Shown: positions 19,688-30,515 of the stretch, piece by piece
Layout of the letters: every line of letters starts with the position of its first letter
How positions within the stretch are numbered: the stretch's first letter is position 1
Assembly (NCBI GenBank): GCA_963737905.1
Contig: CAVTUQ010000039.1
Coordinates: 32,001-96,000, forward strand
Direction: 5' to 3'
DNA from: an uncultured delta proteobacterium
GTDB lineage: Bacteria; Desulfobacterota; Binatia; UBA9968
DNA: 64,000 nt
Made by a program: the position numbers and the translations under genes
The notes under the pieces: generated by a model
The model's database searches: none
The model's input: only the letters and a program-made list of their open reading frames with translations
What the model was told of the DNA's origin: nothing

Positions 19688-21049
19688 ATGCATCAGTTAA
19701 AAGATGGAAAGAAAATTTCTTGGCTCGCTGTGTTCCTATCCGCGCTCGGGATCGTTTTCCCCACGCCGGCTCAGCCAGCCGATCAACCCGCAGGAAAGCT
19801 CGAAAAAGTGAGGATCGCCTACAGCGCTATTTCTGGCAGCCAACTCGTAGGGTGGATCGCCAATGACGCAGGGTTCTTTCGCAAGAACGGGTTGGATGCT
19901 GAGTTCATCTTTGTCGAGGGTGGGCCGCGGGCCGTCCAGTCCATCGCGTCGGGCGAGGTGCAGTTCGGCGTGGTGGCCGGTGCCCCTGTCATACAGAGTC
20001 ATCTTCGGGGTTCGTCGGTAGTCCTAGTGACGGGATTTCTTAACACCCTCGACTATCAGTTCATCGTTGACAAGAGAATCACCCGGCCGGACCAGCTAAA
20101 AGGCAAGGCTGTGGCAGTAAGCCAGCCAGGATCCTCGTCCGATTTCGCCATGCGCTATGCTCTGGATAAATACGGGCTGGAGCCAGGCAAGGATGTAACT
20201 CTGATCGAAATCGGCAGCCAGCCGGCGCGCTTTTCCGCGCTCGAATCAGGTAAGATCCAGGGGGTGATGATCGCGGTTCCGTTGACTCTCACGGCCAAAA
20301 AGATGGGCTTTAACGTCCTGGCCGATCTTCAGATGCTGGGGCTCGAATACCAATACACCGCAATGGCAACCACTCGAGAGTTGATCAAGTCGCGCCCCGA
20401 TCTCGTCCGGAACGTGGTGAAGGCCTCCGTGGAGGCCATCCACTATGTCAAGACCCATCGTAAAGAGTCCATAGAAATTCTTCGGAAGTATATGAAGACC
20501 GATGACATCGAGGCGCTGGCAGAAACCTATGAAGCCACCGCACTCGCCCTGATTCCCGAGAGGCCCTATCCGACCCTCCGCGGAATTCAGATTATACTTC
20601 AGGAACTCGGCACAAAAGACCCTAAGGCTAAGGCAGCCCGGCCTGAGCAGTTTGTGGATATGAGCTTTGTCAAGGAACTTGATGGTTCGGGATTCATCGA
20701 CCGGCTGTATAAAGCGACGCCGGCTGTTGCCAGCGCTGAAACTCACCCACCTCCTGCTCCAAGCACCACGGAGAAAGCAACGCAGACCGCTCAAAAGAAC
20801 GCGATTGTTTCCGACACCAAACAGAGAACGGAAAAACTAGCTCAAGCCCCCAAGACTTCTTCTTCCGCGTCAACGGAATATACAGTGAAGGCTGGGGATA
20901 CCCTCAGCCACTTGGCACTCGAATACTATGGGAATGCACGCAAATGGCGGCAAATTTACGAAGCTAATAAAGAAACTATGCCAAATCCAAATTATATATA
21001 CATTGGACAGAAGATTCTTGTCCCTGCCGATACGCCGCGAGCGGCGTGA
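19688..21049 (+). CDS. NitT/TauT (SsuA/NMT1-like) substrate-binding protein with C-terminal LysM domain
   Basis: Signal peptide, GFFRKNGLD, LKGKAVAVS..GSSSD, Pro/Thr linker, YTVKAGDTLSHLA..YYG...W..IY.AN...PNYIYIGQKI.VP. Confidence 0.88.
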   Translation: MHQLKDGKKISWLAVFLSALGIVFPTPAQPADQPAGKLEKVRIAYSAISGSQLVGWIANDAGFFRKNGLDAEFIFVEGGPRAVQSIASGEVQFGVVAGAPVIQSHLRGSSVVLVTGFLNTLDYQFIVDKRITRPDQLKGKAVAVSQPGSSSDFAMRYALDKYGLEPGKDVTLIEIGSQPARFSALESGKIQGVMIAVPLTLTAKKMGFNVLADLQMLGLEYQYTAMATTRELIKSRPDLVRNVVKASVEAIHYVKTHRKESIEILRKYMKTDDIEALAETYEATALALIPERPYPTLRGIQIILQELGTKDPKAKAARPEQFVDMSFVKELDGSGFIDRLYKATPAVASAETHPPPAPSTTEKATQTAQKNAIVSDTKQRTEKLAQAPKTSSSASTEYTVKAGDTLSHLALEYYGNARKWRQIYEANKETMPNPNYIYIGQKILVPADTPRAA

Positions 21050-21163: not shown

Positions 21164-22349
21164 ATGCCCGGCCGGCCCTTTCTTCAGATACCAGGCCCGA
21201 GCATTGTGCCAGAGCGCGTTGTTCGGGCCATGTCCCAGCCCCTGATCGATCATCGGGGTCCTGCATTCGCAGCGCTGTTGCGCGAAGTTTTGCAGGGGCT
21301 CAAAGCGCTATTTCGAACGGCCGACGGTCATGTTCTCCTCTTCCCCGGCTCCGGCACCGGAGGATGGGAATGCTCTATTGTCAATACGCTTTCGCCCGGC
21401 GACCAAGTGCTGGGCTGTGTGAACGGTTACTTCAGCGACCTATTTTGCCGCACCGCCACCTCCCACGGTATCGACGTGCAGAGACTGGAGGCCGAGTACG
21501 GCGCGGGCGTGCCGGCCGATGCGATTGAGGAGCGCCTGCGTCGAGACAAGGACCATCGAATCAAGGCCGTTCTCGTAGTCCAAACCGAAACCTCCACCGG
21601 TGTCACCAGCAGCCTTGCCACGGTGCGCAAAGCCATCGACGCCGCGGCCCACCCCGCGCTTCTCTTGGCCGATGTGGTGAGCTCGCTGGGCTGCACGGAT
21701 CTGCGCTTCGACGAGTGGAAACTGGACGTCGCCCTGACCGCTGCTCAAAAAGGGCTCATGCTGCCGCCGGGTATGGCACTTCTCGCCGTGAGTGAAAAAG
21801 CGCTTGAGGCGAATCGCGCGGCCCGGTGCGCCCGCTCGTTTTGGGACTGGCGGCCGGTTCTGGAGAGCAATGCGGAAGGTCATTTTCCCTATACCCCGGC
21901 GACTGCCCTGTTATTCGGCCTGAGCGAAAGCCTAAAGATGCTCTTCGAAGAAGGGTTGGAGAATGTTTTCTACCGCCATGCGCGGCTGGCCGGCGCCTGC
22001 CGGAGAGGGATCAACGCGATGACTCTGCAACCTCTTCGCGCGCGATCCCGAACAATATTCTAATACGCTGACTGCGGTCTCAATGCCCGAAGGGTTTGAT
22101 TCCGACTCGTTCATCAATCATACCCTTTCGCTCGTCGATCTGCCGCTCGGCAAAGGTCTCGGCAAAGTCAAAGGAAAACTCTTCCGCATCGGCCACCTCG
22201 GGAGTATCAACGAGCTTGAGCTCTTGGGCGTTCTGGGCGGAATCGAAATGGCATTAAAAAGCTTCGGCGTGAAGTTGCCCCTCGGCGCTGGTCTGGCAGC
22301 GGCGGAAACTTTCCTGTTGGAAACCACCATCAAACGATCGCCTTTATGA
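21164..22349 (+). pseudogene. Class V PLP aminotransferase (serine/alanine-glyoxylate type), +1 frameshift at about 22031
   Basis: IPGP, IDHRGP, GSGTGGWE, ETSTGV, DVVSS, AQKGLMLPPG, PYTP; second part FRIGHLG. Removing one C restores ...QLFARDPEQYSNTLTAV. Confidence 0.85.
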
Positions 22350-23216
22350 AAATCGATCCGCATAAATGCGTTGCCTGTGGAAACTGTTTGCCGGTTTGCC
22401 CAATGGGCGCGATCTACATCGATCCGTCCATCAACCGGGCACGCATCAATGCGGATGAATGCGTGGAATGCTTTACCTGTTATCGAGGCATGTCGAAGGA
22501 ACATCTCAACCCCATGCTGGTACGAACGATCCGCAAGACCGCGCAATTTTTCCGGTTTCGTTTCGATCCGGAACCCGACATCTGCCCCACGGATGCGATT
22601 GTGCCGGAAGAGTTGAGTTGGCCGAGGGTCGTCCGACGCGCCTTCTCCGATCCTCAGGTGCCGCACGAGTCGACCGGCATTCATGGGCGCGGCACCGCCG
22701 AAGTTAAGACTAACGACGTCACCCACCGAGTGAAGGGAGGCGAGGCAGGCTTCGTAGTGGAGTTTGGCCGGCCGGGGATCGGCGCTCGCTTTCGCGACAT
22801 CGAGCGGGTCACATGGAGCCTTGGCCGAGTTGGGCGTGGAATTTGAAAGCAATAATCCCGTGACTTCGCTTATGACCGACCCTGCGCGGGGTCTTATCCG
22901 CTCGGAGATACTCGACGAGAAGATTCTATCGGCGATCGTCGAGATCAAAACTAGCCTGGAACAGGTGCCTTCGGTCTTGAGGAAAATCAGAGAGCTTTCC
23001 CGCGAGGTAAAGACGGTGATCAGCATCGGCGTCTCAACTCGCTGTGGCGGCGCCGGCGAGGAGCCATTGAAGGAGATTTTGGAGCGCGAGGGCTATCCGA
23101 CTTATCGGGGCAAGACTAATTTGGGACTGGGGCGAGTTACGGTAGTCTCGAGTTCCGAGTCTGGCGTCTCGATTTCAATCCGAAACCAGAAACCCGAAAC
23201 TCAAAACGCGCAATAA
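22346..23216 (+). pseudogene. Ferredoxin-domain (two 4Fe-4S) protein with an uncharacterised C-terminal domain, +1 frameshift at about 22811-22820
   Basis: CVACGNCLPVCP and CVECFTC...ICP; GRGTAEVKTNDVT, EFGRPG; continues ALAELGVEFESNNPVTSLM in the shifted frame. Confidence 0.75.
23146..23207. repeat. Heptamer-unit inverted repeat (TCGAGTT-like / CGAAAC-like)
   Basis: TCTCGAGTTCCGAGTCTGGCGTCTCG ... CCGAAACCAGAAACCCGAAACTCAAAAC; related copies near 24954-24995, 27941-28035 and 52654-52745. Confidence 0.5.
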
Positions 23217-23223
23217 ATCGCGT

Positions 23224-23928
23224 ATGACCAACACGCTTCACCGGTACAGCGAGCACTACGCCTTTGAAACGCCGCCGAACCCGGCTCCGGTCCGGGACGA
23301 CTATATCGTATTCGCCATGGCGAGCAGCGGGATCAACGATGACGATCTGGTCGAGAAATACCGAGCTTTCCTGCGCCTGGCGCTGCAGCACAATCCCGTG
23401 AATATCGGCGACGCCACCAAGGGTGGGATACTCCGTCCACGACAGGACTTGAACCCAAAAGCCCACTGGATGCGTAATCAACAACCCAATCCAGAAGAAG
23501 TCATCGCGGGCATCGAAGGCCACACGACCGTGGCGGCAGTCTTTGACAATTATGCAGACGTGAAGGCCTTTGTACACGATGTCCAATGCGCGAATCTGGG
23601 CGTATCGGTGAATATCAGCGCGCCGATTGACGATGCGGACCGTTGCTGCCGCGAGAACGGGATTACCCGCCACAGCGTGGAATATTCCTTGGGGTTTTGC
23701 GGCCGGGTGGACCGGTTGCCGGATGCCACCGTGCTGGAACTTTCAACCATGTGCGGCCACGGCATGCTTTCCGCCCAGTTCGTCGAGAAAATGATCGATT
23801 GGGTCAAAGAAAACCGCCGCACCCCCGCCGAGGTTTCACGTACGATGGCTCGCTTCTGCAGCTGCGGCGTGTTCAACATCAGCAGGGCCGAACGCATCCT
23901 TGATGAGGCAAGAACGAAAAACCGGTGA
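23224..23928 (+). CDS. Hypothetical Cys-containing protein, probable partner of the upstream Fe-S protein
   Basis: MTNTLHR, DDYIVFAM, HSVEYSLG, STMCGHGM, FCSCGVFN; starts 7 nt after the upstream stop. Confidence 0.8.
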   Translation: MTNTLHRYSEHYAFETPPNPAPVRDDYIVFAMASSGINDDDLVEKYRAFLRLALQHNPVNIGDATKGGILRPRQDLNPKAHWMRNQQPNPEEVIAGIEGHTTVAAVFDNYADVKAFVHDVQCANLGVSVNISAPIDDADRCCRENGITRHSVEYSLGFCGRVDRLPDATVLELSTMCGHGMLSAQFVEKMIDWVKENRRTPAEVSRTMARFCSCGVFNISRAERILDEARTKNR

Positions 23929-23973
23929 GATTCCCGTCGAGGGAACAAAAGGACGGGAAAGGAGAAAAAACAA

Positions 23974-24951
23974 ATGAAGCGCATATTCTTTGGTGTTCTG
24001 GTCCTGACCTTGGTTGGTCTTTGGATTCGACCGTCGATGGCGCAGACCGTTACGCTAAGGCTCGGCCATGTCGGTTTTCCGGGCTCTCTTTTCGCCATCA
24101 CGACGGATGAATATGCCAACCGAGTCAACGCCGCGCTCAAGGGAAAAGTGGAGATCAAGGTCTTCCACTCCAGCCAGCTCGGCAGTGACGAGCAGATGAT
24201 GAGGGGGATCAAAGTGGGCGCTCCGGAGATGGTGGCACCATCAACGGTCATGAGCACCGTGGAAGCGAAATTCGGCGTCTTTGAGATGCCCTACCTCATT
24301 GTCAGCCGAGCCCACATGAAGAAGGTAGCGGAGAACTCGCAAGTCCAGAAACTCCTCTTCCAAGGACTGCCTGCAAAGGGAATCAGAGTGCTCGGAGTTT
24401 GGGAGAACGGATTCCGCCACATCACCAACAACGTGAGGCCGATAGTGAAACCTGACGATCTGAAAGGGATCAAGTTGAGAGTGCCGGGCGGAGTCTGGCG
24501 GGTGAAGATGTTTAAGGAGTACGGGGCAAATCCTTCGCCCATGCCGCTCTCCGAGGTCTATTCGGCGCTCCAGTCGGGCGTCATGGACGCGCAGGAAAAT
24601 CCCTTCCCACAAATCGCGTCGGCAAAATTCTACGAGGTGCAAAAGTTTCTTTCTTTGAGCGGCCACGTGTACACTCCCGCCTACCTGGTGGTGGGGGAAG
24701 AATCCTGGGCAAAGCTGCCGAAAGACAGCCAGAACACGCTCTCGAAGATCGCCTGGGAGATGGGAGACTTTGCCCGCTCCGAAGGCGAGCGGCTGGATAA
24801 GGAGCTGATGGGCAAGCTTGTCCCACCCATGAAATCCAACGAGGTCGACAAAGATGCGTTTATTAAAGGCTCGGCCGGGGTCTACGAAGAATTTGGCAAA
24901 GAAGTACCGGGCGGGACTGATCTGATCAAGGTCATCCAGTCGCTGCGGTAA
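23974..24951 (+). CDS. dctP: TRAP transporter substrate-binding protein
   Basis: Signal peptide, SQLG, WENGFRHIT, DLKGIKLRVP, EVYSALQSGVMDAQENP. Confidence 0.95.
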   Translation: MKRIFFGVLVLTLVGLWIRPSMAQTVTLRLGHVGFPGSLFAITTDEYANRVNAALKGKVEIKVFHSSQLGSDEQMMRGIKVGAPEMVAPSTVMSTVEAKFGVFEMPYLIVSRAHMKKVAENSQVQKLLFQGLPAKGIRVLGVWENGFRHITNNVRPIVKPDDLKGIKLRVPGGVWRVKMFKEYGANPSPMPLSEVYSALQSGVMDAQENPFPQIASAKFYEVQKFLSLSGHVYTPAYLVVGEESWAKLPKDSQNTLSKIAWEMGDFARSEGERLDKELMGKLVPPMKSNEVDKDAFIKGSAGVYEEFGKEVPGGTDLIKVIQSLR

Positions 24952-25044
24952 TATCTAGAGATTCGAGATTCGAGTTCGAACACGAATTCAGAATTGTGCC
25001 CCCTGGCTATCCCAATGCGAAAGAACCACAAGCCATAATCAACC

Positions 25045-25560
25045 ATGGGGAAGATCCTCGACCGCGTGATTGAGCTACTCGAGTGGTGGGCGGTGGTTCT
25101 GCTCGTTCTGATGGTCGTATTGGTCTTTCTCGGGGTTTTCTTCCGTTATGTCGTCGGCGCGGCTCTCGCCTGGTACGATGAATTTGCTTCGTATTTACTG
25201 GTCTGGTTGACGTTTTACGGAGCCGTCGCCGCCTCCTATCGCCGCCGCCACATCGGATTCGAGACGTTCGTTATTCGTCTGTTGCCGAACACTCGAAAGG
25301 GGATCGAGGTGGTTGCCGAGCTCCTTATTCTGGGATTCCAAGTTGTGCTTTTCTACTATGGCTGGCTTCTTATGCGAAAGATGGGCGATGAGACCGCGGT
25401 CTCGCTGGCTTGGGTGAAAATGGGCTGGGTCTATAGCGTGTTTCCCATTACCGGCGGGCTCATGCTTCTCATCAGTCTCGACCGTCTGTTTCGCCTTGTG
25501 TTGCGCAAGGGAGATCAGAAAGGAGCCGAAGTCGCGTGGAGTGGCTCATCCTCGGAATGA
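25045..25560 (+). CDS. dctQ: TRAP transporter small permease
   Basis: Four TM segments, VFFRYV, W.DE...Y..VW, HI motif. Confidence 0.92.
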   Translation: MGKILDRVIELLEWWAVVLLVLMVVLVFLGVFFRYVVGAALAWYDEFASYLLVWLTFYGAVAASYRRRHIGFETFVIRLLPNTRKGIEVVAELLILGFQVVLFYYGWLLMRKMGDETAVSLAWVKMGWVYSVFPITGGLMLLISLDRLFRLVLRKGDQKGAEVAWSGSSSE

Positions 25561-26813
25561 TCGTTCTCCTGACGGTCATCAATGTCCCCATCGCTTTCGC
25601 TCTCTCGATTACGACGATTGTATTCCTTTTGGTGAACGGGACTGCGTCCCTCAGTGTGGTGCCCTTAAACTTATTTTCGGGATCGTCGAGCTTTCCCCTG
25701 CTCGCCATTCCCCTCTTCATCTTGGCCGGCGGCCTCATGGAGACTTCAGGGATCTCGCTTCGACTGGTCAATCTGGCCAACAGTATGGTGGGCTTCATCC
25801 GCGGCGGACTGGCGATGGTGACGGTGGTAGCGACTATGATCCAGAGCGAGATCTCCGGATCCTCCGTAGCGGATGCCGCTGCGATCGGTAATGTTGTGAT
25901 CCCGGCCATGGAGAAGCGCGGGTACCCAAGAGCGTTCAGCGCGGCCATCGTTTCCAACGCAGCGTCTGCCGCGATTCTGATTCCTCCCTCCATTCCCATG
26001 ATCATCTACGCCTGGATGGCCGAGGTGTCTGTGGCCAAGCTTTTTTTTGCAGGCTTTCTACCCGGTTTTCTAGCGGGCGGATGTATGATGGCTCTCAGTT
26101 ATTATTACGCGTGCAAGTATCGGCTCCCGGTTGAACAGAAATTTTCATTACGGTCGGTCGGAAAAACTACGGTACAAGCTTTCTGGGCGCTGTTTATTCC
26201 ACTCGTAATCTGGGGCGGAATCTTTCTCGGCATCGCCACCGCCACCGAAGTCGCGGCGCTGGCGGTGATTGCGGCATTCATCATCGGCGCGTTCATCTAT
26301 CGCGAGCTGCCTGCACGCGAGCTCGTGCGGGTCTTGAGGGACTCCACCGGGCAGACCGCGGTGGTCATGCTCATCGTGGCCTCCTCGGCGGTGCTCGGCT
26401 GGTTTCTCACCAGCGAGCAGATTCCGCAGAAGTTTGCTCGCCTCATGCTTGAGACAACATCAAACAAATACGCGATCCTTCTCTTTCTGAACATCTTCTT
26501 TCTTATTGCAGGGATGTTTCTCCATTCGGCCGCCGCGATCATCCTCATCGTCCCCATCGTGATGCCGCTGATCCGGCAAATTGGATTGGATCCGATCCAT
26601 TTCGGCATCATCGTGACCATCAACCTCGGTGTGGGTCAGCAGACCCCGCCCGTCGCGACGGTGCTGTTTACCACGGCCGCCATCGCACGCTTGCCCTTCT
26701 GGGAAGTTTTCAAAGCGGGATGGCCGTTCACCGTTGTTCTGGCCTTAGTCACTCTCCTGGTTACTTATGTACCATGGATCAGCCTCGGATTGGTCAACCT
26801 CGTCAATTGGTGA
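25536..26813 (+). CDS. dctM: TRAP transporter large permease
   Basis: LLAIPLFILAG, SGSSVADAA, LIPPSIPMIIY, TATE, GLDPIHFG, TPPV. Confidence 0.95.
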   Translation: MEWLILGMIVLLTVINVPIAFALSITTIVFLLVNGTASLSVVPLNLFSGSSSFPLLAIPLFILAGGLMETSGISLRLVNLANSMVGFIRGGLAMVTVVATMIQSEISGSSVADAAAIGNVVIPAMEKRGYPRAFSAAIVSNAASAAILIPPSIPMIIYAWMAEVSVAKLFFAGFLPGFLAGGCMMALSYYYACKYRLPVEQKFSLRSVGKTTVQAFWALFIPLVIWGGIFLGIATATEVAALAVIAAFIIGAFIYRELPARELVRVLRDSTGQTAVVMLIVASSAVLGWFLTSEQIPQKFARLMLETTSNKYAILLFLNIFFLIAGMFLHSAAAIILIVPIVMPLIRQIGLDPIHFGIIVTINLGVGQQTPPVATVLFTTAAIARLPFWEVFKAGWPFTVVLALVTLLVTYVPWISLGLVNLVNW

Positions 26814-27001
26814 TCGGCCCGCCAGCAGACTTCGAAGCGGAAAGAGTATGCAAAGGAGTTAGCCAAAAGGAGAATGCGGGCCGGCCGTTTGCGAATGCTA
26901 GACTTCAGGTCGGTGCTTGCCGCAATCACGCACCTGGACATTTGTCTGCCCTTGAAGTAAGGGGAAGATAAATCAAAAATCTCCAAAAGAAAGGAACCGT
27001 C

Positions 27002-27940
27002 ATGCCCACATTAATCACGGGATTGGGTTTAGTTGGAACATCCTACGCACAGCTCGCGCTGAAGCGCGGCGAGAGTATCGTCTTCTACGACGTGGCGCCA
27101 AGAAAAGATTTTCTGGCGCTCAAGCTCGGGACAGCAAACGTCACGGTGGTCCAAAGAGACGTACGTGATCTTCCGGCACTGGTGGAAACGATCCAAAAAC
27201 ACAAAGTGGATAAAGTCATCCATACTGCGGGTTTGATCGGCGGCAAAGTTGCGCAGCCGATCTACACCGGCATGCAGATCAACGTGATGGGGACCATCAA
27301 CGTGGCGGAGGCGGTGCGGTTGACCGGCGTAAAACGCCTCGTGCAAATCAGCACCTTCGGGATCTACGACCGGCGCGGAGGGGAACCCGGCCCCATCGAT
27401 GAAAGCTTTCACCGTGGGCCCGGCGAACCTTACGGCAATTCCAAAGTGGCCAAGGAATTGATGGTGGAGGCTTACCAGCGCCTTTATGGATTTGAATTGA
27501 TCGTTCTCCGCCTCGCCAATGTCTATGGCGTCGGGCACTTTGCTGGCGGCTCTGCCGGCGGCGAGATGGTGCAAACCATGCTGCAAACCGGCATTAAAGG
27601 CGGCGTCGCGAAAATCGCCCAGGAGCAGGCTCGTGACTTCGAATATATCTATTACAAGGACTTGGGTCGTGCCCTGGACAAGGCCGCGACGGCTCCCCTA
27701 ACAGCTCCGGCTACCTTGAATATCGGTACCGGCGTGGTCATTAAGTTCGATGATCTCGTAGCAACCGCGGAGAAACTGCTGCCCAATCTGCAAGTGGAAT
27801 TGATCCCGGGAACGCGGTCCCGAAGCGCCAAGCAACCCATGGTCATCGCCAAGGCCAAGCAGCTCCTAAACTGGGAGCCTGAATACAATTTGGAAGCCGG
27901 GTTCAAGGATTACATTAAGGAACTTAAAGAATTAGGTTAG
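27002..27940 (+). CDS. NAD-dependent epimerase/dehydratase (extended SDR)
   Basis: ITGLGLVG, HTAG, INVMGT.NV, YGNSK catalytic motif, R.ANVYG. Confidence 0.9.
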   Translation: MPTLITGLGLVGTSYAQLALKRGESIVFYDVAPRKDFLALKLGTANVTVVQRDVRDLPALVETIQKHKVDKVIHTAGLIGGKVAQPIYTGMQINVMGTINVAEAVRLTGVKRLVQISTFGIYDRRGGEPGPIDESFHRGPGEPYGNSKVAKELMVEAYQRLYGFELIVLRLANVYGVGHFAGGSAGGEMVQTMLQTGIKGGVAKIAQEQARDFEYIYYKDLGRALDKAATAPLTAPATLNIGTGVVIKFDDLVATAEKLLPNLQVELIPGTRSRSAKQPMVIAKAKQLLNWEPEYNLEAGFKDYIKELKELG

Positions 27941-28033: not shown

Positions 28034-30515
28034 CTAGAAGGACAGAATGCCATTTTTACCGCTCTTGTATCCATTGTAGCGAATCGTGGCGCCGTCGGTC
28101 TCCAGAATGATGGCGCCATCCTCATCCGTGCGTAAAATCTCGGCTCCGACTTGACGATAGCGCGCAACCACCTCGTCGCGAGGGAATCCGAAAGGATTGC
28201 GGGATCCCACGGAAAATATCGCCAATGAAGGCCGCACCGCCGTCACAAATTCCTGAGTGCTGGAGCCGGCGCTGCCGTGTCGCGGAACTTTGACCACAAG
28301 GCTGCGAAGCTGCTCGGCTTTAGGCTGTAGCCGTTGCTCGTCGCGCTTGTCTAGGTCCCCCGCAAACAGAAATCGTACCTTACCGAACTCCAGCCGCAAC
28401 ACGACGGAGGCATCCTCCGCTCCGTCCGGCGGCGGATAGAGCACGCAAAGCTTGACGTCGTCGATGGCGCGACACGGTACCTGATCGCTCAGGGTAAGTC
28501 GTTTGACGTTCCCTTGCTCCAAGGCCTCTTCCAAATCATCGAAGCGGGTGGTTTTGCCTTTGCTTGGCCCGGACCAAAACTCCGCCGGCGCGAATTCCGT
28601 CGCCACAGACCGCATACCGCCATAGTGATCAACGCGCGGATGACTGACGAATAAGTAGTCTACCTTAAGAATTTTGCGGGAGCGCAGAAATGGACCGACG
28701 ATACTTTCACCGGTGTCAAAATCTCCCAACGCCGTCCCGCCGGCATCGATAATCAGCACCTTCGAACGGGGCAGCTCCACGACAGCGGCATCGCCCTGGC
28801 CGACGTTTAAATGAGTTACACGTAACGCTTTGCGGCCCCATCGTTCACCCCACCAATAAAAGGCGTCGGCCCCCAAAGCCAATGCGAATACGGCAACCGC
28901 CACAATCACAAACCGATTTCTACGCAAGAGAAAAAACGCGACAATAAATAAATAGAGCGCGGTTATCTCCAAGGCATTTGGCACGGGCACCGCAATGTTG
29001 GCGAGGGGAAGGTGTGAAAACAGCCTCACTAGCCAGAGGGTTGCCGACAATAGATACTCGGCCGGCCACACCAAAACAGCCGCAGCGGCGGGGAATATCA
29101 AAGAGAGAAAGCCCGTGATCAGCCCCAACGGCACAACGATAAAACCGACTAACGGCACAATTACGGGGTTGGAAATGAAATCCGGCTAAAGACAAATGAC
29201 CGAAATAGTGAGCGATCAGCGGCCCGGTGCCCAGAGTTGCAAAAAGCGGCACGGCCAAATGCAGGCTCCCTTGCCTTAGTTTATGCTTCCACCAACTCCG
29301 CTCCTGCGGCAGTTCGTCCCGGGGTCGCCGGGGCGACCTGTCTATCATTCTACGCATGCCCCAAACAATGAACAGCACCGCGAGAAACGAAAGCTGAAAG
29401 GAAATATCGGCAATGACAGCAGGCCAGATCAGCGCGATGAGCAGCGCGGCAAAAGTAAGACTGGCGAACACTTCCTCCTCACGGTCCAACAGAACCGCCA
29501 ACTCATAGACCCCGATCATGATCGCCGAACGGACCGTCGGCACCATGGCCCCGGCGATGGCGGTGTAAAAAGCCACCGCCAAAAAGGAGAGGAACGTCCC
29601 CACCTTCAGCAAATTCCAGCGTAAGAGGAGAGTGGAGCTGTACGAGCCGCCAAAACGAACCAGCCAGAAGACCACCAGCCCCAGCATGCTGACGTGAAGT
29701 CCGGAAATGGAAAGCACGTGGTTCACACCTGCAGCGGTAAACTCGTTGCGCATTTCCTTGGTGACAGCACCCATATCGCCGACCACCAGTGCCTTCATAA
29801 GAGCGCCGTTGTCCGATGAAAAGTGCTGATCGATATACCGGCGAATCTCTCGGCGGAGTGATTCGATAGCACCGCGCACGGGACCGGGCCTGCGGGCCAA
29901 CAGTTCGACCTCCTGGTCGTTTTCCAGATATCCAATAGCATAAATCTCTTGTCGCGCCAGGTAAGTCGCGTAATCGAACCCGCCCGGGTTCCCGCTGTTT
30001 CGCGGCTCTTGCGGCCGAATCCAAAAGCGTAAGCGATCGCCGTAATGCCATTCTTGTCGCACGCGTCGGATGCTCAACAAAAGGTCTCCCGAAATTTCTT
30101 CAGCCCCTGTGGGATGCCAGATTCGGTCGCATCGGACCAGCCATCGGCTGCGGTTCGGTAATTTCTCCGGCTCTCGCGCGAGCGTCCCTTCTAGATATAG
30201 GAGTGCACTATCGTTACCCAGCAGGCGGACGTGATTCGGCGGGAAGTCCGGGTGAAGCAGCTGCCAATGCCGGATGTAGCCAAGCGAAAGTCCCAAAGCC
30301 GCGCTGAAGAGCAAGAGTCCCCAGCGTCTTGTCGTCGTTTTGATAACGAGCAACAACGGGATGAGCGGAAGAAAAAAGAATTGAGACGGGATGACGAGCG
30401 GGAGCGCGGCTGCCGCCTGGCCTACCAGGAGGGATAATGTCGGAACCACCAGCCACACCAACGGGTGGCTGAGTCTCGCAACGGCAGTTGTCCTTGTTAC
30501 CGTCTCTCCGGACAT
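28034..30515 (-). pseudogene. comEC: DNA uptake channel ComEC/Rec2, +1 frameshift at about 29177-29180
   Basis: NPGGFDY, HVLSISGLHV, SFQLSF (competence domain); NVGQGDA, IDAGG, SHPRVDHYGG, KVPRHGS (MBL domain). Removing one T gives GFISNPVIVP. Confidence 0.9.

Follow-up and report, generated by a model that had tools for sequence, protein, structure and literature searches.

What do two adjacent genes do that sit in a catabolic gene module of an uncultured Binatia bacterium and that resemble no characterised enzyme? The genes lie in a 64,000-nucleotide (nt) stretch of contig CAVTUQ010000039.1, which we call the window; coordinates are positions in it, and the module genes are all on the plus strand. 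F (22346..23216; the name is used for gene and protein) encodes an iron-sulfur (Fe-S) subunit with an N-terminal 2x[4Fe-4S] ferredoxin domain and a C-terminal domain (C-domain) of about 190 amino acids (aa), and is read in two overlapping frames (22346-22846 and 22764-23216). P (23224..23928) encodes a 234-aa partner subunit without a family match. A preliminary description of the window, made from the sequence, had proposed a two-subunit metalloenzyme of unknown chemistry that acts on an imported acid or sulfonate after transamination. The adjacency of the two genes, the predicted binding of their products, the conserved motifs and the absence of a characterised relative uphold the two-subunit metalloenzyme, while the order "after transamination" is not supported. 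We conclude that F-P is probably a widespread uncharacterised two-subunit metalloenzyme, and we see about even chances that it is a flavin-free Fe-S oxidoreductase for an imported small carboxylate, belonging to no described family.

No characterised enzyme is recognisably related to F-P, and absent matches do not by themselves prove a new fold. Pfam and NCBIfam searches with the window proteins returned nothing for the C-terminal piece of F or for P, and window P matched no Pfam family at E <= 1. Seventy-one P proteins showed no consistent Pfam match, the commonest being a weak SHOCT-like hit in 10 of the 71 (best E 0.004), and 50 F proteins had Fer4-type families as their sole matches at E <= 0.1. 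In the PDB, neither sequence (phmmer) nor profile searches gave anything for P, and for F they gave ferredoxin domains only. AlphaFold2 models reached a predicted local distance difference test (pLDDT) of 91.7 and a predicted template-modelling score (pTM) of 0.89 for P, and 89.8 and 0.87 for F. Foldseek against the PDB gave no match at E <= 0.001, the lowest E values being 0.053 (P) and 0.030 (F). When 48,161 chains were searched with VIA-align, P reached at best Z 4.5, with a generic alpha/beta sandwich. The ferredoxin domain of F superposed on solved ferredoxins with Z 6-8 and a root-mean-square deviation of 1.6-2.3 Å over 54-62 residues, and its C-domain reached up to Z 6.9 with generic ACT-like sandwiches only. 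The ESM Atlas returned only clusters named "hypothetical protein" and "4Fe-4S binding protein", and tblastn with P gave no match in a plasmid collection. No description of the F-P pair was found in the full-text literature, a source that leaves aside subscription papers and supplements and in which some matches were set aside as irrelevant on their titles and the first lines of their abstracts. The outcome that the preliminary description had set against its own proposal, that both proteins map to a characterised enzyme, was not obtained by sequence or fold searches.

A collection clustered at 90% identity contains 4403 homologues of P at E <= 0.001, and 1.84 billion representatives clustered at 50% identity contain 555 matches. 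The best 120 homologues are 79-92% identical and nearly all 234 aa long, and those with a name are called "hypothetical protein". The closest named ones come from Candidatus Binatia, and the sequencing runs that contain the region are soil metagenomes, with no RNA run listed for it. When 71 full-length representatives that share 30-60% identity with window P are aligned, residues R7, G178, C212 and C214 are invariant, and M1, T2, H6, G9, D26, G126, S128, H150, G157, G160, M176, C177, H179, G215, N218 and R221 are at least 90% conserved. The motifs of P are thus an N-terminal MT-TLHR, His150, Cys177-Gly-His179 and Cys212-x-Cys214-Gly-x-x-Asn.

For F, 50 proteins from many phyla were aligned. 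The N-terminus passes as a bacterial-type 2x[4Fe-4S] ferredoxin, with Fer4 families in 50 of 50 proteins and all eight ligands (C8, C11, C14, C18, C39, C42, C45 and C80) invariant in the same 50; this invariance suggests that electron transfer has been retained. The Fer4 families cover residues 1-59 only. In the C-domain the residues kept are G114, R115, G116, T117, E119, K121, N123, G141, R142, P143, P171, G182, S195, E199, K256 and G260, and the motifs GRGT-E-K-N, GRP and N-P are invariant or nearly so. The preliminary description had noticed that the second cluster motif is split by an insertion of about 35 aa. The insertion is real and exactly 34 residues long before the last Cys-Pro in 41 F genes, and a 5-residue spacer takes its place in 36. 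The long form is found in Binatia, Acidobacteriota, Alphaproteobacteria and others, and the short form mostly in anaerobes and archaea. The other motifs singled out earlier (TLHR, HSVEYSLG, TMCGHG and CSCGVFN in P; EFGRPG and NPVTSL in F) are all conserved. We propose to define the F-P family by F directly upstream of P, by GRGT-E-K-N-D, GRP and K-x-N-x-G-x-G in F, and by an N-terminal T-x-x-x-H-R, C-G-H and C-x-C-G-x-x-N in P. Window F and P carry every one of these motifs once an extra base in F, discussed below, is discounted.

The two genes are tightly linked. Loci were found with a degenerate DNA pattern for two P motifs in species-representative genomes, which gave a motif-seeded sample of at least 80 loci; the redundant loci L036 and L068 were left out, and 81 complete P genes in 74 loci were counted. 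Among the matches listed, 76 of the 81 P genes (76 of 78 evaluable) directly follow an F gene on the same strand, whereas the preliminary description had named missing co-occurrence as an outcome against its proposal. Five P genes have no F upstream: three are at a contig end, and two lack F despite room for it (L062 and the second copy in L101). The carriers among these matches are Acidobacteriota, Thermodesulfobacteriota, Bacillota, Chloroflexota, Alphaproteobacteria and Verrucomicrobiota, together with metagenome-assembled genomes (MAGs) of Asgard archaea, Bathyarchaeia and Sulfolobales. Several genomes have two tandem F-P pairs.

A multimer prediction, a check that the preliminary description had suggested, points to direct binding of the two proteins. 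The interface score ipSAE was 0.89 in three of three runs, and the best of three controls scored 0.00. The mark applied to this score is reached by 116 of 157 solved complexes and by 2 of 215 mismatched pairs, a calibration that holds roughly for the custom alignments used here. The runs share at least 87% of contacts, with partner pLDDT of at least 85, and the interface is large, with about 320-334 residue contacts. In the predicted complex, F 15-19 lies beside the cluster ligand C18 and contacts the Cys-Gly-His-Gly loop of P (178-190). F 118-126 (GRGTEEvKTND), 142-145 (GRPG) and 250-264 (K-T-N-L-G-L-G-R) touch P 1-9, 124-136, 147-162 (with His150) and 210-214 (Cys-x-Cys). The interface therefore gathers the invariant motifs of both proteins; structure searches found no similar solved complex. 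From linkage and prediction together, F and P probably form an obligate heterodimer. The contacts suggest an electron path from the outer to the inner cluster of F and on to a metal site on P, with a pocket formed by both chains.

Two further observations concern the relation between the subunits. P 109-168 and F 203-267 of locus L013 gave a weak hhalign match (probability 4%), and BLAST returned the same alignment in two comparisons (E 1.6-2.0). P "...LGVSVNIS...GITRHSVEYSLG" is matched there to F "...VVSLGVST...GYPTYRGKTNLGLG", and in the predicted complex these same strands lie against each other at the interface. We take this as a hint, and not as a finding, that the heterodimer could be pseudo-symmetric, with ancient paralogous units as its building blocks. 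Apparent F-P fusions (L027, L052 and at least five longer database proteins) were set aside as Rosetta-stone evidence. At least two of the longer database proteins arose where a frameshift carries the reading of F on into P, and the other apparent fusions were not used because a 1-nt error at an overlapping stop and start would look alike. P0166, in which P is fused to a Fer4_11 domain, was left unused under the same caveat.

Are the window genes intact? In the window sequence the aminotransferase gene upstream of F and F itself each carry one frame break, from which one could argue that both are true pseudogenes and that the module is decaying in this organism. We aligned contigs from four public soil-metagenome runs to window positions 21164-23928. 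In all four runs, every contig that spans the break at 22028/22031 or the one at 22813-22815 has exactly one base fewer than the window there. One contig across the aminotransferase break (21974-22244, 270 nt) is otherwise letter-for-letter identical to the window; the F break is spanned by no identical-strain contig, and the evidence there comes from relatives 90-95% alike. F is a single intact open reading frame (ORF) of 267-284 aa in nine of nine primary relatives' loci, and the aminotransferase pieces are in one frame wherever the gene is present (eight of the same nine). On both sides of the breaks the frames are 79-92% identical to relatives and free of further stops, which speaks against decay. 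The minus-strand comEC gene 5 kb downstream (28034-30515) is split in a similar way into two overlapping ORFs, 28920-30515 (DUF4131 and Competence 1-183) and 28034-29158 (Competence 191-268 and metallo-beta-lactamase). This third frame break within 10 kb points to indel errors in the assembly. Because the public contigs lack the extra base and ComEC is split in the same way, we read the breaks as assembly errors: the aminotransferase, F and ComEC genes are very probably intact in the organism, and pseudogenes are a very improbable explanation. The preliminary description had taken the genes as frameshifted, and a need to treat them as decayed is not supported.

The genes around F-P in the window and in its relatives bear on the possible substrate. 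The class V aminotransferase gene (21164..22349), of the serine-glyoxylate/alanine-glyoxylate/BhcA-like group, is present as two ORFs (21164-22063 and 22083-22349), and its stop shares 4 nt (ATGA) with the start of F; 7 nt separate the stop of F from the start of P. A TRAP transporter follows, consisting of a DctP-family solute-binding protein with a signal-peptide-like N-terminus (23974..24951; PF03480, E 2e-76, 257 bits), the small membrane subunit DctQ (25045..25560; PF04290, E 8e-29, 101 bits) and the large membrane subunit DctM (25536..26813; PF06808, E 6e-118, 395 bits), the last two overlapping by 25 nt. The last gene encodes a short-chain dehydrogenase/reductase (SDR) epimerase/dehydratase (27002..27940; Pfam Epimerase). 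Co-orientation and overlapping or 7-nt junctions across the first three genes, as described earlier, were confirmed from the ORFs, and Pfam agrees with the gene types assigned (class V aminotransferase, Fer4, DctP/Q/M and Epimerase).

Ten window proteins were compared by tblastn with ten relatives' loci. F and P were found in all ten, the aminotransferase in eight, the TRAP genes in seven and the epimerase in none. The order aminotransferase-F-P-TRAP is kept in most relatives, with DctP downstream of P in seven of ten loci, DctQ syntenic, and DctM syntenic at 86-92% identity. Upstream of the aminotransferase, an aldehyde dehydrogenase was seen in L014 and L017 and an Amidohydro_2 protein in L013 and L016. 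The same aminotransferase family lies beside F-P and DctP in two unrelated MAGs (L055 and L061). The link of TRAP importer and class V aminotransferase, which the preliminary description had wished to see checked in homologues, thus recurs in relatives. The epimerase had been counted as a member of the module and pathway and is probably an independent gene. No counterpart occurs in any of the ten loci, one of which is from a same-genus genome with 5 kb of sequence past DctM; in the window it is separated from DctM by a 188-nt gap, and it falls below all NCBIfam equivalog cut-offs (best GalE, 92 bits vs 262).

Among 41 related genomes, an orthologue of the aminotransferase (67-100% identity) is present in 15 of 16 with P and in 0 of 25 without P; these genomes are kin, and a handful of gains or losses might account for the pattern. 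The 25 P-negative genomes, which include the unpublished G006 and G012 (both without the orthologue), have only a paralogue of 34-37% identity. The window enzyme matches class V (PF00266) with 47 bits against a cut-off of 21.5, and the intact copy in L019 with 63 bits. The window sequence ...TAAQKG... presumably marks the site of the family Ser/Ala-x-Gln-Lys motif, with its PLP-binding Lys. The model of the L-aspartate-glyoxylate aminotransferase BhcA (NCBIfam NF045640) matches the window pieces colinearly (model 7-293 and 307-388, 359 and 74 bits, cut-off 650) and the intact L019 orthologue end to end, at 478 bits against the equivalog cut-off of 650. For the intact 394-aa L013 orthologue, the best solved match is the serine-glyoxylate aminotransferase 6pk1 (E 4e-101). 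Compared with serine-glyoxylate aminotransferase and BhcA, the window-type enzyme is alike in its class V fold-type, its best solved match and the end-to-end BhcA alignment. It differs from BhcA in scoring below the equivalog cut-off, in being a second paralogue found only with F-P, and in that no other beta-hydroxyaspartate-cycle genes were seen adjoining it. On these sequence comparisons it is placed in the wider serine/alanine-glyoxylate group, which uses glyoxylate or hydroxypyruvate, and not in BhcA proper. The transporter has all three DctPQM components, and DctP scores 229 bits with TIGR00787 (cut-off 175). A conserved Arg of TRAP binding proteins binds the carboxylate of the ligand. 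The Arg in KLRVP of window DctP aligns with an Arg of its best solved relative, 4ovs_A (E 1.5e-46), a modest similarity that fixes no ligand.

The module is flanked by housekeeping genes (Lgt, D-Tyr-tRNA deacylase, SpoU methylase, ComEC and UvrC), which indicates that it is bounded. A promoter and terminator scan gave fewer matches than in shuffled sequence. Just upstream on the plus strand (19688-21049) is a gene for a 453-aa protein in which a long low-complexity linker connects an NMT1/THI5-like periplasmic binding domain to a C-terminal LysM domain, and NMT1-like genes also adjoin the F-P operon in L013, L018 and L098.

How might such an enzyme work? In the oxidoreductase that we favour, the two [4Fe-4S] clusters of the ferredoxin domain of F would serve as an electron wire. 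The inner cluster would lie beside a Cys3(+His) site on P (C177, H179, C212 and C214), most likely a third Fe-S cluster, with P as the presumed catalytic or cluster-binding subunit. The substrate pocket would be at the F-P interface and lined by R115, T117, E119, K121, N123, R142 and K256 of F and H6, R7, H150, N218 and R221 of P. A small carboxylate imported by the TRAP transporter would be oxidised or reduced by F-P at or next to C2, and the 2-oxo acid would be interconverted with an amino acid by the aminotransferase. For example, a 2-hydroxy acid of the glycolate or glycerate type could give glyoxylate or hydroxypyruvate and then glycine or serine. We infer the cluster on P, its type, the redox chemistry, the substrate class, the direction and the step order. 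A narrower version, in which F-P is a ferredoxin-linked counterpart of GlcDEF and LutABC with an unseen catalytic-subunit fold and a Cys3His cluster that oxidises 2-hydroxy-carboxylates to 2-oxo acids or the reverse, is possible and rather doubtful.

Gene neighbourhoods across phyla bear on this scheme. Neighbour genes were predicted with a simple longest-ORF caller, clustered, and assigned by Pfam and NCBIfam on representatives, so the counts given here, for the 88 loci listed, are approximate. A secondary carboxylate transporter lies within about six genes of F-P in 46 (TRAP in 14, tripartite tricarboxylate transporter in 15, major facilitator superfamily (MFS) in 20), and a GntR/FCD regulator is nearby in 14. 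Enzymes of 2-oxo- or 2-hydroxy-acid families are nearby in 32; they include GlcD-type oxidases (among them 1000-aa GlcD-FeS-CCG fusions), LarA racemases, D-2-hydroxyacid dehydrogenases, DHDPS/HpcH/RraA aldolases, HMGL-like enzymes, thiamine pyrophosphate enzymes, and class I/II and class V aminotransferases. Redox partners occur in 15 and comprise a PadH-like NADH flavoprotein, a CooF/PadI-like polyferredoxin, a Prismane/CooS-family protein, aldehyde:ferredoxin oxidoreductase (AFOR) and a POR subunit. Also recurring are amidohydrolases (9 loci), sugar-oxidising PQQ/GSDH dehydrogenases and lactonases. F-P looks like a reusable catalytic unit in many carboxylate pathways, and its substrate probably differs between subfamilies. 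The sulfonate substrate named as an option in the preliminary description was rejected, as nothing points there apart from one TauE-family neighbour at a single locus of the 88.

Several points weigh against the oxidoreductase. The three Cys and the His of P could hold zinc, or either type of cluster, and no metal ligands were included when the complex was folded. Rfam searches of the window operon and seven relatives' loci gave no riboswitch or other RNA family, and the solved relatives of DctP, as said, fix no ligand. The linkage sample is motif-seeded, the aminotransferase association comes from kin genomes, and the neighbour counts are rough. The neighbour sets are heterogeneous, and in the listed loci of aerobic carriers no dedicated electron partner lies beside F-P. 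Lactonases, PQQ/GSDH dehydrogenases and DHDPS-, HpcH- and RraA-type aldolases suit a non-redox sugar-acid dehydratase equally well.

In such a dehydratase, the substrate would be a sugar acid or else a hydroxy-dicarboxylate (for example tartrate, malate or hydroxyaspartate), and a three-Cys [4Fe-4S] cluster on P would serve as the Lewis acid. The 2-oxo or 2-keto-3-deoxy acid formed would go to the aminotransferase or to aldolases, and the ferredoxin domain would be structural or only cluster-reducing. That only three Cys are conserved in P is in agreement with this explanation, as three are also found in clusters of the aconitase and serine/tartrate dehydratase types, and the lack of an adjoining electron partner in aerobic carriers fits it too. 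Besides the aldolases and the PQQ and GSDH dehydrogenases, neighbours of the SMP-30/gluconolactonase-like, xylose-isomerase-like TIM barrel, FAA-hydrolase and threonate/tartronate-semialdehyde-type dehydrogenase families and MFS transporters of the galactonate/tartrate type are what one would expect to find near it. However, eight ferredoxin Cys kept in 50 of 50 F proteins are unexpected for a vestigial domain, the Cys/His loop of P is predicted to pack on this very domain, and the 15 loci with redox partners add ferredoxin, flavoprotein, CooS-like or AFOR proteins. Pfam, which has no match of F or P to a known Fe-S dehydratase family, and NCBIfam gave no SDH_alpha/beta or Fumerase domain for either protein, and no such enzyme appeared in the fold-search lists, an absence that says little about the fold. 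We regard a dehydratase, the main rival, as unlikely.

The great diversity of the neighbourhoods, the lack of any inferable substrate-like ligand and the standard di-cluster ferredoxin domain of F would also suit a non-enzymatic accessory, that is, a ferredoxin with an adaptor that transfers electrons to other enzymes or senses redox state and regulates the adjacent transporters. About twenty invariant polar residues outside the cluster motifs, however, gather at the predicted interface, as residues of an active site typically do. F-P is embedded in catabolic operons with importers, and the conservation of P is very high (79-92% identity among the 120 best matches). A purely accessory role thus appears improbable, and the oxidoreductase remains the explanation that we prefer.

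Three neighbourhoods deserve separate description. In anaerobic lineages (L030, L052, L055, L061, L063 and L069; also L025 and L057) a recurring trio stands before or after F-P, made up of a PadH-like NADH flavoprotein, a CooF/PadI-like polyferredoxin of about 160 aa and a protein of 430-680 aa. Longer members of the last group match Prismane/CO dehydrogenase (PF03063, E 6e-44), with a CooS-like N-terminus. The trio may be a dedicated electron-supply module, or it may be a link to CO- or hydroxylamine-type chemistry. Three loci of Dehalococcoidia MAGs (L067, L042 and L041) have a conserved cluster in common. In it, one or two F-P pairs are accompanied by aldehyde:ferredoxin oxidoreductase, a xylose-isomerase-like TIM barrel, two GlcD-type FAD oxidases and a nickel-pincer racemase of the LarA family, which scores 440 bits with the LarA model (cut-off 460). 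Such a compact setting for 2-hydroxy acids is suited to experimental work. One Binatia-family genome contains, besides the pair at L019 (G016:C367), a second and divergent pair at L022 (G016:C227), in which P is 37% and F about 50% identical to the window proteins. This pair has no aminotransferase or TRAP genes and adjoins a hexapeptide-repeat transferase. Its different context suggests subfamilies with different substrates.

F-P is abundant, strongly conserved and present in Bacteria and Archaea, but it lacks a family name, a solved relative and an assigned reaction. It occurs in carboxylate-uptake operons of dominant uncultured soil lineages (Binatia and Acidobacteriota) and of anaerobic sediment lineages, and its reaction, once known, would close a recurring gap in metabolic reconstructions of these lineages. 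If F-P does oxidise 2-hydroxy acids, it could explain missing glycolate, glyoxylate or sugar-acid steps in uncultured soil and sediment microbes, and it would found a new class of flavin-free Fe-S enzymes, spread over more than ten bacterial phyla and the archaeal groups Asgard, Bathyarchaeia and Sulfolobales. The system is tractable, with about 500 residues in total, confident predicted binding, candidate ligand residues, and DctP and the aminotransferase to narrow the substrate.

Which known systems does F-P resemble? Two-subunit Fe-S hydro-lyases are represented by L-serine dehydratase alpha/beta and the L-tartrate dehydratase TtdAB. F-P is similar to them in its adjacent two-subunit genes, in three Cys that may hold a cluster with one iron left free, in an ACT-like alpha/beta domain and in a presumed conversion of carboxylates to 2-oxo acids. 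It differs from them in having no Pfam or NCBIfam match and in that hydro-lyases are without a ferredoxin domain, whereas F has one with all eight Cys invariant. The LutABC/LldEFG lactate-utilisation complex oxidises a 2-hydroxy acid by flavin-free Fe-S chemistry. Like this complex, F-P would be a multi-subunit Fe-S system without a flavin domain, in which one subunit joins a 2x[4Fe-4S] ferredoxin to a non-cluster domain, and it is found in organic-acid catabolic operons beside permeases and GntR-type regulators. Unlike LutABC, it has two subunits and not three, P has a different and unmatched fold, there is no sequence relationship, and no LUD (DUF162) or CCG domain was detected in P or F among the 25 most frequent families of the alignment members. 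In HdrBC-, GlcF- and GlpC-type modules a ferredoxin-like subunit feeds a Cys-rich catalytic Fe-S subunit, and F-P as proposed follows the same plan, in which a di-cluster ferredoxin wire serves a catalytic site whose Fe-S ligand set is unusual. F-P differs from these modules in that it has no CCG motif or Pfam match, P has only three conserved Cys and a His, and the predicted active site spans both subunits. Because the defining domains of the LutABC, HdrBC/GlcF and hydro-lyase families were sought and not found, F-P is placed outside all three. It is a member of none of these families, and it would work most like LutABC and the HdrBC/GlcF-type modules.

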